IMG/VR virus record: IMGVR_UViG_2693429668_000006
DNA from: a virus
Lineage: Duplodnaviria > Heunggongvirae > Uroviricota > Caudoviricetes
Strand: one strand, 5' to 3'
DNA length: 64,000 nt
Below the pieces are notes generated by a model. It was not told the origin of the DNA, did no database searches, and was given only the letters and a program-made list of their open reading frames with translations. Every line of letters starts with the position of its first letter. Position 1 is the stretch's first letter. The translations under genes were made by a program, and so were the position numbers. This document shows positions 57,601 through 64,000 of this stretch, one piece after another.

Positions 57601-57710
57601 CCGTTTCCCGAAAAAATCCTGGCCGTTTCCCGTCGGCTCATGAATACGTTCCTCGCCGTTTCTGAAAATTTCCCTGCGGCAGCTGGTGGCTATAGAGAAA
57701 GGGCCGTTTC
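57601..57710. repeat. iteron cluster 1 (four GCCGTTTC(C/T) repeats)
   Basis: CCGTTTC at 57601, 57623, 57656, 57704. Confidence 0.55.
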
Positions 57711-58208: not shown

Positions 58209-58226
58209 GATTAATTCCTTATCGTA

Positions 58227-58260
58227 AATAACAAATTGTTTTCTTGTTGGTGTTAATTAT
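58227..58260 (-). promoter_or_regulatory. conserved promoter-operator element (extended -10 TGCGATAAT plus AACAAATTGTT palindrome)
   Basis: Near-identical element repeated at 58714..58750 and 60851..60890. Confidence 0.5.
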
Positions 58261-58412
58261 CGTTGTACGAATAAGGCGTCAAAGTGGAAAGTTGCGGTAG
58301 CCGGACGGGAACAGGTGGGTTTGTCGGTTGCCTGGAGGTAAGAGGTTGGTGTTTTTAGCCTGCGGGAAACAGGATGGTCATTTAAGGCCACCAGCATTGG
58401 TGGCCTTAATCT

Positions 58413-58700
58413 TTAGTGGAGCAGACCGATGTCGATGGTATCCCCTGAATCATCCACACGGATCATCAGCATGGCAAAGGCGTTTAGTGGATAGCTTGCG
58501 TGCCATTCAGGGAAGCGGTCATCTCGCATGAAGTCGGCAATGTCGTAAACGCATCCCTCAAAGTGGAAGAATCGCGTGCTTACCTGCTCGTCATAATCCA
58601 CATGATCCATTTCTTGCTGTTCTGTTTCCGGCAAGTCCAGCCATGATTCAAGAAATACATTTTGTGCTTTAGGGGTAATGGTGAAATCAGTCATGAGCAT
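58413..58700 (-). CDS. hypothetical small acidic protein (accessory array)
   Basis: ATG at 58700 with SD GAGG; ORF track start at 58826 would overlap the promoter element. Confidence 0.4.
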   Translation of the reverse strand: MLMTDFTITPKAQNVFLESWLDLPETEQQEMDHVDYDEQVSTRFFHFEGCVYDIADFMRDDRFPEWHASYPLNAFAMLMIRVDDSGDTIDIGLLH

Positions 58701-58883
58701 ATCCTCACTGCGTAAACATGTTGTTTTCTTGTTGGTGTAATTATCGCAGTGTAGATAAGGCATAAAAGAAGTTAATACAGGCTGAATACACAAGAAAGGT
58801 TCTGGAAGTTGATAGCCAGGTTTCAAACTAACCTTCGGTTATTAAAAGTCATTTAAGACCACCAATGCTGGTGGCCTTAATAA

Positions 58884-59027
58884 TTATCGCCCGATTACGC
58901 TAAGGATCTTTTCCTCAACTGATTTGTTGTTGCGACTAAACTGCCTTGCGTATCTGATGACAGAAGAGGCGTTTTGCTTTCTGACCATCTCGGCTCTTTC
59001 CTTCAGGCGTTTCTTGAAATCGCCCAT
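58884..59027 (-). CDS. possible small basic protein (47 aa)
   Basis: Hand-translated MGDFKKRLKERAEMVRKQNASS...; below ORF-track cutoff; hairpin 58855..58878 downstream. Confidence 0.25.
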   Translation of the reverse strand: MGDFKKRLKERAEMVRKQNASSVIRYARQFSRNNKSVEEKILSVIGR

Positions 59028-60838: not shown

Positions 60839-61202
60839 AAAGCAATCCTTAAACAACATGTTTTCTTGATGGTGTTATTATCGCAATAACGCACAGGCGA
60901 AAAAGGATTTTATTCCGGTGAATGTGGTTTTGGCAGTGAGTTTTCAGGTTCAGTACCGAGAACACTTTTTACATTATTCTGATTTAGTGGCCGAAGGTGG
61001 CTGGTGGGCAGAATAATCATCTCCCCGAAAACCTACTGAAATCGATTGTGACCCGTTGGCTGTCTGGCACAATTACGCTGTAGCTGGGCATTCAGAGGGA
61101 ATCCAGCGGTAAGTAAGTTCGCCTGCACGTGAGCGCCTCTCTTCTTCCCGCACATTACAGGTGGGTAGCCGCAACTCTCCCTCACGCTATACCGGTACGC
61201 CG

Positions 61203-61337
61203 CCGTTCCTGAACCGGCATCGAGCCTTTTCCCGAAACCCACACAGGCAACTCGACCGTTTCCCTGAAAACCTCCAGCCGTTCCCCGAAGGCAACCCAGC
61301 CGTTTCTGTAGCGGGATGCAACCTTTTCCCTGTATGG
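61203..61337. repeat. iteron cluster 2 (six CCGTTTCCC-type repeats phased about 21-22 bp)
   Basis: Repeats start at 61203, 61225, 61257, 61278, 61299, 61322. Confidence 0.6.
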
Positions 61338-62400
61338 ACCGAAGGCTGACCGTAGGGGTGTTACGGGGGATAAAATCAGGAGTTGAATAAATACGAAAAA
61401 GGAGGCGACACCCCTCCTTCCCTCCCCACTTATACATACCTGGCTTCTTCGCTATACATGTTGTGTTTTATCTGTCTCAACCTCTCTATAGGCGTTAATG
61501 CTCACTCCTTCCAGAATGTTCTATACGGCGACTATTTCTGTTGGTGAATTGGGCGTGTTGTTCTCTCTGTCGGTGTAAATGGTTTCGTTCGTTTTGCGGT
61601 GGTTCTTCTATGGGGTGTTCTCGTCGTTTTGGTGATTGTTCTTCTCCGTGTATGGAGTAATGGCAGGTGGGCGATTGCTTTCGTTATTGTGTTTGAGTTG
61701 TTTGTCTGGAGTGTGTGAAAGGCTTTTGTAGTTATTCGTGTATTGGGTAATGGCGTTTCCCGTGATTGTTATGTTTCGTGTCTTTTGGGATTGAGAGAAA
61801 CCTTGCGGTTACAGGCTTCGTTGGGGTTTCAGCGGTTCAGGTGTTTCTTCGCTGTTTGGGTAATGGCGTGTCGTGGGTATCGCGCGTATGAATGTTTTCG
61901 GATTGCCTGTGAAAGTTAGGTTGGTTGTCCGGTAGCCTGGGGAGAAGAGGTGGGTCTTTTCGGTAGCCTGCCATAAAGAGGTTGGTTGTTTTGGGGAATG
62001 GCATGTGTGTTATTTAGTTGTTTTGTTATGCCTGAAAATAAGTTGTTTATATGGTTGTGTAACGCAACGGGAACGATTTTGAGCGTGTGTTTTTGTTGGT
62101 AGTGTGTTGGGTCGTCTGTGGTGAAAATTGGACGCTGTGGCGCTGTCTGCTGCGTAGAATTACGGGTATAAGCAGTGATGTGTGAAAACGTCAATTTTTT
62201 AGACCAAATCGGATGAAAGCGTTGATGTTTCGTTGATCTGTTATTCAGTTGTTTTCTTGATTGTATAAACAACTATAACTTATTGATATTTAAGGATGTG
62301 ATTGCGGGTATGGAAGGGGAGTAGTGGCGATCAACGGATTCTTATAGAAAAGAATCAAATTGTGACCGCCATTATCAACGGTTTGAATCTGTTTGCAGAT

Positions 62401-62861: not shown

Positions 62862-64000
62862 TTACTTAACCTGGTGGCCAGGTTTAGCACCAGCATCCGG
62901 GCTTAACAGGAAGATATCTTTCCCACCGGGGCCAGCAGCCATCACCATACCTTCGGAGATACCGAAGCGCATTTTACGCGGAGCCAGGTTAGCCACCATA
63001 ATGGTGTGACGACCAATCAGTGCCTGTGGGTCTGGATAAGCAGAACGGATGCCTGAGAAGACATTGCGTTTTTCACCACCTAGATCCAGCGTCAGACGCA
63101 GCAGTTTGTCAGAGCCTTCAACAAACTCCGCGTTTTCAATCAGCGCCACGCGCAGGTCAACTTTGGCGAAGTCATCAAAGGTGATGGTTTCCTGAATCGG
63201 ATCGTCTGCCAGCGGGCCAGTAACTGGCGCGGCAGTGGCTTTCACTTCTTCTTTAGAGGCTTCCACCAGTGCTTCAACCTGCTTCATGTCGATGCGGTTA
63301 TACAGTGCTTTGAACGGATTAACTTTGTGCGCCAGCAGCGGTTGCTGGATACCATCCCAGGTCAGTTCTGTATTCAGGAATGCTTCTGCACGTTCAGTCA
63401 GTTTCGGCAGTACCGGCTTCAGGTACGTCATCAGCACGCGGAACAGGTTAATGCCCATAGAGCAAATCGCCTGCAGATCGGCATCGCGTCCTTCCTGCTT
63501 CGCCACCACCCACGGAGCCTGTTCATCGACATAGCGGTTAGCCAGGTCAGCCAATGCCATGATTTCACGGATAGCTTTACCAAATTCGCGGCTTTCCCAT
63601 GCTTCGCCAATCACTTCAGCGGCATCAGTAAAGGTTTTGTACAGTTGCGGGTCAGCCAGTTCGCTTGCCAGCACGCCGTCAAAACGCTTGTTGATAAAGC
63701 CTGCATTACGGGAGGCCAGGTTAACCACTTTGTTCACGATATCGGCATTCACGCGCTGAACGAAATCCTCCAGGTTGAGATCGATATCATCAATGCGCGA
63801 AGAGAGTTTCGCAGTGTAGTAGTAACGCAGGCTGTCAGCGTCAAAATGATTCAGCCAGGTGCTGGCTTTAATAAAGGTGCCGCGAGACTTGGACATCTTT
63901 GCGCCGTTCACCGTCACATAGCCATGAACAAACAGGTTGGTCGGCTTGCGGAAGTTGCTGCCTTCCAGCATGGCAGGCCAGAACAGGCTGTGGAAGTAAA
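62862..64000 (-). CDS. metG: methionyl-tRNA synthetase, C-terminal part (5' end beyond window)
   Basis: Translation ends ...[23 protein letters not shown] and matches the enterobacterial MetG anticodon-binding and C-terminal tRNA-binding domains. Confidence 0.9.

Follow-up and report, generated by a model that had tools for sequence, protein, structure and literature searches.

The 64,000-nucleotide stretch of viral DNA analyzed here (the window; IMG/VR record IMGVR_UViG_2693429668_000006, class Caudoviricetes) contains, close to its right end, a non-coding tract with a strong strand bias in base composition. All coordinates are positions in the window. An earlier reading, made from the letters alone and referred to as the sequence-only reading, placed the tract at 61440–62290; it is delimited here as approximately 61440–62330. 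The window DNA around the tract is 100% identical to the Escherichia coli plasmid NZ_CP151018.1 (112,650 bp), and the E. coli matches, 250 in all, are to plasmids of ~110 kb (243 plasmids) and to no chromosome. The replicon is annotated with a siphovirus structural module, terminase, dnaE, a DnaB-like helicase, primase, nrdAB, thyA, rnhA, tRNAs, and a RepB-family plasmid initiator, and it also encodes a ligase. Homologues of the tract occur in phage SSU5, in phage Cyrano (pLF82), in Salmonella plasmids of the size of pHCM2, and in plasmids of Klebsiella, Enterobacter, and Citrobacter. Because of the plasmid-only matches, the annotation, and the homologues in SSU5, Cyrano, and pHCM2-type elements, the window is assigned by sequence comparison to an SSU5-family phage-plasmid and not to a chromosome. 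The family has pHCM2 of Salmonella Typhi among its members; its phage-plasmids are common in E. coli, Klebsiella, Salmonella, and Enterobacter and carry defence, metabolic, and resistance cargo.

The tract is flanked on the right by a variable cargo region and on the left by a repressor-controlled cluster of small early genes. Its position is constant, and the neighbouring cargo differs by lineage; the genes found past the junction include those for DUF5983, a coiled-coil protein, a GIY-YIG nuclease, DUF262, a type I restriction-modification (R-M) system, DUF4942, and LprI. The sequence-only reading had set the tract next to a junction between the element and its host. However, metG and apbC, on the right of the tract, belong to the plasmid as cargo and are not host DNA, and therefore there is no element-host junction; with matches only on ~110 kb plasmids, the boundary is one between core and cargo within the plasmid. 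A search of the far side of the cargo for a second copy of the junction sequence found none. The tract and the features that bound it, from right to left, are as follows.

62325–62371, minus strand: hairpin at the junction, lacking a U-run, with GGCGGUCA/UGAUCGCC as its outer stem; it lies directly after the cargo gene and at the end of between-lineage conservation.
62290–62324, minus strand: very C-rich stretch 3' of the junction hairpin, seen in alignments as variable in sequence between clades but constant in composition.
61440–62330, minus strand: the whole tract, non-coding, G+T-rich on the plus strand and A+C-rich on the minus strand, conserved across SSU5-family phage-plasmids.
61522–62242, minus strand: C-rich, G-poor, nearly unfoldable zone resembling a Rho utilization (rut) site, from a scan of 78-nt windows.
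61395–61422, minus strand: intrinsic terminator, a hairpin followed by a U-run, closing the tract, from a terminator scan.

The plus-strand base fractions at 61440–62290 are 0.170 A, 0.139 C, 0.296 G, and 0.395 T, giving a G+T fraction of 0.691. In 850-bp windows over the 64 kb the mean G+T fraction is 0.502 with a standard deviation (SD) of 0.028, and the runner-up window reaches 0.587. The top-scoring G+T segment is 61535–62327, and the skews within the tract peak at +0.48 (GC) and –0.53 (AT). In 400-bp windows over the complete 112.6 kb plasmid the tract, at 0.748 G+T against 0.50 ± 0.034 (+7.3 SD), is the sole strong outlier, and the bias is seen in no other non-coding DNA of the plasmid. 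The extreme G+T strand bias described in the sequence-only reading is thus real, and the skew departs massively from the genome average. Read in the minus sense, the RNA would consist of 0.39 A, 0.30 C, 0.14 G, and 0.18 U.

The tract does not encode a conserved protein. The longest open reading frame (ORF) on the plus strand has 58 codons, in agreement with the earlier description of this strand as almost devoid of long ORFs, and the longest on the minus strand has 118, with a TTG start, and is not conserved. No conserved ORF was found on either strand and substitutions have no 3-base periodicity; stop-free stretches shift in frame and length among close relatives, and indels are often not multiples of three. 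One alternative considered is that the plus strand encodes small hydrophobic peptides, since its G+T-rich codons specify Val, Phe, Leu, Cys, Trp, and Gly, and in GGAGTAATGGC a Shine-Dalgarno-like sequence precedes a stop and a start that overlap. Short plus-strand ORFs do start at TAATGGC motifs (e.g. MAGALFSSFT, MAVGRFSCSPHMK, and MAFPAIQEF...), and one 50-residue and one 80-residue ORF are annotated in relatives. These ORFs are, however, truncated, frameshifted, or missing in several lineages, the frame differs between clades even in the best conserved block, and no plus-strand promoter was found. Together with the missing periodicity and the indel lengths, this led us to reject the peptides as extremely improbable.

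Two hairpins bound the tract, and both are read in the minus sense. The junction hairpin lies in a 91-nt stretch (62310–62400) with a folding energy of –22.3 kcal/mol (z –4.3). All 32 distinct sequences have the same outer stem, so that covariation is uninformative. The C-rich stretch that follows reads ACUACUCCCCUUCCAUACCC in the window, CUUUCCCCACCCCUCCAACCUACCCC in the SSU5 type, and CCCUCUUCCCUACUCUCC in the Klebsiella type. The scan detected the left-edge terminator in the Klebsiella clade as well as in the window, and its U-run is weaker in SSU5-type sequences. Among 24 distinct sequences of the left-edge hairpin, 86.7% of the cells are paired as compared with 60–79% in slid controls, two pairs have changed on both sides, and the covariation score was reached by 3 of 500 shuffles. 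G.U pairs make up about 29% of the cells, and these would become A.C mismatches if the plus strand were the one that folded. Because the covariation and the G.U pairs fit only the minus sense, this hairpin is maintained as minus-sense RNA, and therefore minus-sense transcription through the tract appears to be anticipated and stopped there. The relevance of the minus strand, from which the sequence-only reading had envisaged a CA-rich RNA, is upheld by this strand specificity.

The same reading had suggested that such an RNA would be structured, and this part did not hold. A search of Rfam at E ≤ 5 gave no match inside the tract, folding of the whole tract was no better than that of shuffled sequences on either strand (z –0.68 and +0.29), and the consensus fold of the minus-sense core has an energy of ~0 kcal/mol. 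When consensus folds were slid along the alignment and compared with column shuffles, conservation was confined to three local hairpins. The base pairs of the tandem units and the operator-like repeat described below are invariant, as are those of the junction hairpin, and hence uninformative, and no covariation was found outside the left terminator. The minus-sense RNA is instead exceptionally free of structure: its minimum free energy is only –137 kcal/mol over 866 nt, and in a windowed scan it is –0.07 to –0.15 kcal/mol per nt as compared with –0.25 ± 0.05 elsewhere (GC-adjusted z +3.5 to +4.8), whereas plus-sense folding is ordinary. When 78-nt windows with a C/G ratio of at least 2 and at least 25% C were merged over gaps of up to 78 nt, the rut-like zone extended over 721 nt, the next longest on the minus strand being 269 nt; strictly contiguous runs are 170–319 nt long in all 13 lineages tested. 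The minus-sense RNA combines the properties by which Rho-dependent terminators are recognized, namely a C-rich and G-poor sequence of at least ~80 nt, a single-stranded state, and no translation. A type III toxin-antitoxin locus, in which ToxI-like tandem repeats of ~36 nt precede a terminator and a ToxN-family gene, was considered and rejected: there was no Rfam match, the neighbouring proteins matched no Pfam or NCBIfam family except DUF5983 (PADLOC was not searched), and the order of hairpin and repeats is reversed here.

Strand-resolved RNA-seq data, at the level of genes, are available for ten samples of E. coli LF82, which carries Cyrano (96% identical in this region; PMC9928086, S1 Table); values are log2(fpkm+5), where fpkm is fragments per kilobase per million mapped. 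The cargo gene CYRAN_102, whose end is a few bases short of the junction hairpin, has values of 5.6–9.2 (~45–590 fpkm) with a peak of 9.21 (PMC9928086). CYRAN_103, an ORF call in the minus sense over window 61916–62272 and so in the right half of the tract, has a value of 2.32 (0 fpkm) in LB and a maximum of 4.27 (~14 fpkm) across the ten samples; where CYRAN_102 peaks it is 2.85 (~2 fpkm) (PMC9928086). From ~590 to ~2 fpkm across the junction, transcription therefore collapses in these gene-level data between cargo and tract. CYRAN_105, an early gene to the left of the tract, is induced independently, up to 7.8 (PMC9928086), and therefore the tract is not co-induced with its neighbours.

The tract is present in 839 plasmid records and 12 phage records, always in a gap of 1–1.9 kb that is either unannotated or has scattered short ORF calls that differ by record. 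Its G+T fraction is 0.67–0.71 in every homologue, and the three main families are mutually 60–73% identical. The neighbouring protein genes are 67–68% identical, and because the divergence of the tract equals theirs, it is under constraint. Nearly invariant in about nine lineages are GTTCTTCTCCGTGTATGGAGTAATGGC, the tandem 31-nt units, the inverted repeat TTGTTTTC-N8-GAAAACAAnTTGTTTA, and a 100-bp block termed block R; between these blocks the sequence varies and the richness in G+T is kept. Conservation between lineages ends directly after the hairpin at 62325–62371, and beyond it each lineage has different genes. Both the tract and its skew are thus retained in related elements, a comparison that the sequence-only reading had proposed. 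A functionless relic, either a decayed gene or a heap of degenerate intergenic modules with a skew produced by strand-biased mutation, would account for a right end that is a degenerate gene-start module without a start codon. It would also suit the substitution spectrum, which is close to the prediction from composition alone, so that the excess of G↔T substitutions looked for as a sign of selection on composition was not decisive. Such a relic is nevertheless very improbable: families only 60–73% identical can still be aligned and still show the skew, with no more divergence than in coding neighbours, the blocks remain invariant, the bias is confined to this part of the non-coding DNA of the plasmid, and the bounding hairpins are maintained.

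A smaller locus with the same layout lies to the left of the tract.

58292–58409, minus strand: second locus, in which repeat and fold searches identify a gene stop codon, a hairpin without a U-run (58382–58409), three 30-nt C-rich units (58384–58292), and the promoter of the next gene.

The hairpin (about –20 kcal/mol) is between two co-directional genes. The units are of the type repeated in tandem within the tract, and downstream of them are the promoter and operator of the next gene. A minus-sense zone in which C exceeds G spans 58223–58411, and the layout is retained in a contig of the size of Yersinia pestis pMT1. Other intergenic gaps of the early-gene cluster also contain minus-sense zones with C in excess of G, which are shorter than that of the tract. 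In Y. pestis pMT1 homology stops at window 58767; the tract region is absent, and hence this plasmid is uninformative about the tract itself.

We propose, tentatively, that the tract is an oversized Rho-loading and termination buffer between the cargo and the early genes. This explanation is the one we favour, and we hold it as plausible but somewhat short of probable. It is based on the rut-like minus-sense zone, the unfoldable and untranslated RNA, the hairpins at both boundaries, and the fall in RNA in the lysogen, and also on the recurrence of the layout at 58.3 kb, the constant position beside varying cargo, and the outcome of a scan for sigma-70-like promoters, which found none on either strand in three clades. 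RNA polymerase leaving the minus-strand cargo gene would first transcribe a stable hairpin and then several hundred nucleotides of untranslated, C-rich, G-poor, unfoldable RNA. The host termination factor Rho would load on this RNA, and the transcript would be released early and trimmed back to the hairpin, whereas a polymerase that escaped would meet the conventional hairpin-plus-U terminator at the left edge. The involvement of Rho, like selection for insulation, is what we infer from these features.

Several points weigh against this proposal. The junction hairpin alone, or rapid decay, could cause the drop in RNA; the terminator scan did not find the left-edge terminator in an SSU5-type locus (L006); and the density of YC dimers is only modestly raised (0.131 as compared with 0.095). 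A stretch of ~80–100 nt is sufficient for Rho loading, and the length of 850 nt is left unexplained. The same is true of the depletion of U in addition to G, which Rho loading does not require, and of the blocks of 20–100 nt that are invariant across families only 60–73% identical, in a tract that has diverged like the neighbouring protein genes, because a signal encoded in composition alone does not need them. Finally, in the Klebsiella clade the adjacent cargo (DUF262 and R-M) points away from the tract and therefore little minus-sense transcription should enter from it, yet the tract is retained there.

The conserved blocks and repeats, some of them recognized in the sequence-only reading, are listed below; no strand is assigned to those inside the tract.

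62164–62262: block R, the best conserved part, GGTATAAG-N11-AAAACGTCAAC-TTTTTAGACCAAATC-N7-GCGTTGAC-N4-CGTTGAT-TGTTATTTATTTGTTTTCTT, nearly invariant in about nine lineages.
62018–62050: operator-like inverted repeat TTGTTTTC-N8-GAAAACAAnTTGTTTA, kept in all lineages, with no covariation.
61901–61992: three tandem units of ~31 nt, invariant across families, reading GGTAGCCTG-N7-GAGGTnGGT on the plus strand and ACCnACCUC-N7-CAGGCUACC on the minus strand.
61636–61664, 61732–61759, and 61845–61872, with a variant at 61985–62003: GTAATGGC-type units (TTCTYCGYRTATKRRGTAATGGCR), from repeat-family and motif searches.
61203–61335, plus strand: six GCCGTT(T/C)CC units with 22-bp spacing, C-rich on this strand, just to the left of the terminator.

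The motif GGGTAATGGCG, which had been reported to occur three times, does recur, but the count was different: there are two exact copies (61745 and 61858) and variants at 61654 (GGAGTAATGGCA) and 61993 (GGGGAATGGCA). With up to one mismatch it occurs five times in the window, where 0.66 are expected. SSU5-type relatives have about six copies of the GTAATGGC-type unit. The second motif noticed earlier, GGTAGCCTG-N7-GAGGTnGGT, has two exact copies in the tract (61931 and 61962), as described, with a degenerate third copy at 61901 and two variants near 58.3 kb (58296 and 58326), five matches in all where 0.10 are expected. In viral contigs of 100–111 kb, tandem copies of the 31-nt unit together with one distant copy are the rule. 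The spacing of repeats within the tract is irregular. The GCCGTT(T/C)CC units overlap a plus-strand zone with a C/G ratio of at least 2 (61132–61313). Three further units, iteron-like in character, are at 57601–57656 (region 57601–57670), and none is close to the RepB gene; the GCCGTT(T/C)CC and 31-nt units together form two similar repeat sets ~3.6 kb apart.

The operator-like repeat is related to the palindrome AACAAnTTGTT. This palindrome is present at eight positions in the window (16168, 19935, 49089, 58230, 59465, 60368, 62715, and 62766), as against ~0.1 expected, and the complete plasmid has 12 copies. In the promoters of small minus-strand genes, which have a GATAAT –10 element, it overlaps the –35 and +1 regions; it is also found upstream of a gene for a ParA-like ATPase. 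AACAAnTTGTT is probably the operator of a global repressor.

Block R is found once on the plasmid and contains a degenerate copy of the promoter/operator module that starts the neighbouring genes, without a start codon. Four copies of the heptamer CGTTGAY cluster within 170 bp near block R and the junction hairpin, at 62220 and 62231 on the plus strand and at 62336 and 62380 on the minus strand, the last copy falling exactly at the end of between-lineage conservation. On the minus strand block R contains TTGACG-N17-TTATAY, a sequence that fails the sigma-70 scan. The element is kept in three clades with a spacer of variable sequence and constant length, and its relationship to the promoter modules of neighbouring genes raises the alternative of an RNA gene of the lytic phase. 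A phage-dependent promoter in block R would then direct the synthesis of an A+C-rich, structure-free RNA of ~770 nt that ends at the left terminator and acts as a decoy or sponge for Rho, Hfq, or G/U-rich small RNAs such as GcvB. The conserved minus-sense terminator would close the unit, the constraint is as strong as in coding neighbours, the invariant repeated blocks could be binding sites, and the depletion of both G and U would reflect selection against pairing of any sort. C/A-rich elements are targets of GcvB, and anti-sRNAs encoded by prophages exist. On the other hand, the candidate –10 element is without the key A and T positions, the promoter scans were empty, the level is 0–14 fpkm in all ten LF82 samples even where neighbouring early genes are induced, and an untranslated C-rich RNA would itself be shortened by Rho. 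Our search of the literature for an induced transcriptome of SSU5, or for its lytic origin or virion termini, found nothing, and in the literature searched this tract is not mentioned. We consider an RNA gene rather unlikely. A more specific form, in which an "anti-structured" A+C RNA of ~0.8 kb titrates Rho, with genome-wide antitermination as the result, or titrates Hfq together with G/U-rich small RNAs through the repeat blocks as binding sites, is distinctly unlikely; we know of no precedent in phages for a long regulatory RNA of this kind.

A further alternative, which draws on the repeat families, is a cis-acting DNA locus to which several proteins bind, such as a lytic replication origin or an architectural site that the flanking hairpins would shield from transcription. 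Besides four to six GTAATGGC units, three 31-bp units, four CGTTGAY heptamers, and the operator-like sites, six iteron-like units with 22-bp spacing adjoin the tract and a second iteron-like and 31-bp set lies 3.6 kb away; the tract is AT-rich at its right end, and there are IHF consensus sites at 62373 and 62288. The tract is silent in the lysogen. Since the replicon carries replication genes of its own (dnaE, DnaB-like helicase, primase, ligase, and rnhA), it must have a lytic origin at some position. However, no DnaA boxes or G-quadruplex motifs were found in the tract, the phasing of T-tracts is marginal, and the repeats are irregularly spaced. Over the whole plasmid the cumulative skew runs monotonically between extremes at RepB, without a turning point. 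RepB is ~30 kb away and the helicase, primase, and loader genes ~45 kb. Neither the one-strand G+T bias over 850 bp nor the RNA-specific left hairpin is explained. A DNA locus of this general kind is unlikely. A role as replication origin specifically is not supported, in spite of the adjoining iteron-like repeats, and neither is a packaging site (pac or cos), since terminase is 12 kb away and the tract is at inconsistent internal positions in linear phage records; the packaging or origin-associated region of the sequence-only reading thus lacks support.

Two viral contigs are mosaics of the E. coli and SSU5 types that switch parent inside the tract, exactly at invariant blocks. The switches are at ~61604–61664 and ~61950–61990 in one (L071) and at ~61950–61980 in the other (L138). 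Breakpoints thus do occur within the tract, for which the sequence-only reading had suggested a recombination hotspot as one possibility; the data are two mosaics, with no comparison with flanking DNA. They are compatible with the tract being a recombination linker, a conserved, G+T-rich region of homology bordering the cargo that would favour exchange of cargo between families by RecA or a phage recombinase. RecA prefers G+T-rich DNA, the tract borders a hypervariable region, and a plus-strand Chi octamer is present at 61000. Breakpoints in the most identical stretches are, however, expected in any homologous exchange, there is no Chi in the tract, and the Chi at 61000 would act leftward, away from it. 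With the terminators and the transcriptional silence also left without explanation, a linker is quite improbable.

Other features of the region were noted in passing. In the window, 58230–58900 contains a duplication of ~471–484 bp, comprising a promoter module and a hairpin, that is missing from the otherwise identical NZ_CP151018.1; the duplicated pairs are 58230–58284 with 58714–58768 and 58382–58409 with 58853–58880. The latter are near-identical gene-end hairpins that have the Chi octamer GCTGGTGG in their stems in opposite orientations; the Chi at 61000 is additional to these. The cargo to the right of the tract (window 62862–64000; L001 13863–24327) includes genes for a full methionyl-tRNA synthetase (metG), apbC, the theta subunit of DNA polymerase III, an S24 peptidase, and a type I R-M system, and elsewhere the phage-plasmid carries dfrA51, nrdAB, thyA, dnaE, rnhA, cspG, and four tRNAs. 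For the small proteins near the tract, sequence searches of Pfam, PHROGs, NCBIfam, and PDB returned only "unknown function", DUF5983 excepted. A search for an outward plus-strand promoter in block R that could serve the Klebsiella cargo found none. In the Klebsiella plasmid NZ_CP092407.1 (L014 3600–3720) the end of an IS3-family transposase adjoins a truncated copy of the tract, which moves with DUF262 and type I R-M cargo into large IncFIB/IncHI1B plasmids and is uninformative about the tract.

Among known systems, the tract can be compared with Rho-dependent terminators that have rut sites, such as lambda tR1 and trp t'. It shares with them an untranslated, C-rich, G-poor, unstructured RNA after a gene, a loss of signal across the site as far as gene-level data show, and a stable upstream hairpin that could serve as the trimmed 3' end. 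It differs in being about 10 times the necessary length, in its invariant blocks and repeats, in the depletion of U as well as G, and in having an intrinsic terminator of its own, and the participation of Rho is a proposal. The terminators of morons and other cargo in temperate phages are likewise at the edge of an accessory region expressed in the lysogen and separate it from repressed phage genes, but they are single short hairpins owned by the moron, whereas the tract is owned by the backbone and stays while the cargo changes. Prophage anti-sRNA sponges, such as AgvB, which acts against GcvB, present a similar C/A-rich sequence of the type recognized by the seeds of G/U-rich small RNAs; they are 60–80 nt long and expressed in the lysogen, whereas an RNA from the tract would be ~800 nt long, is silent in the lysogen, and has no promoter that we could find. 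Origins primed by R-loops (ColE1 RNA II and T4 oriF/oriG) and G-skewed R-loop zones also have an excess of G over C for hundreds of bases, and the element encodes RNase HI. An R-loop in the tract would need plus-sense transcription, however, and no plus-strand promoter was found there, the start of its plus-sense sequence is not G-rich, and its conserved terminator is minus-sense. The linkers at module borders of lambdoid phages are similarly conserved non-coding sequences in which breakpoints fall, but are short and without a strand bias in composition.

Apart from a few short, unconserved ORF calls, none of the records examined has an annotation for these ~0.9 kb, constrained as they are. 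If the tract is a barrier to transcription, it represents a known type of signal in a form that is unusually large and constrained in sequence, and an RNA gene would be the more novel outcome. A termination buffer would allow the backbone to take up any strongly expressed cargo without leakage into the lytic genes, which would explain how these phage-plasmids tolerate a variable accessory region, and it would constitute a portable insulator encoded in composition. If the tract were instead a lytic-phase RNA or a lytic origin, it would supply a missing piece in the biology of mobile elements that are common in the clinic.

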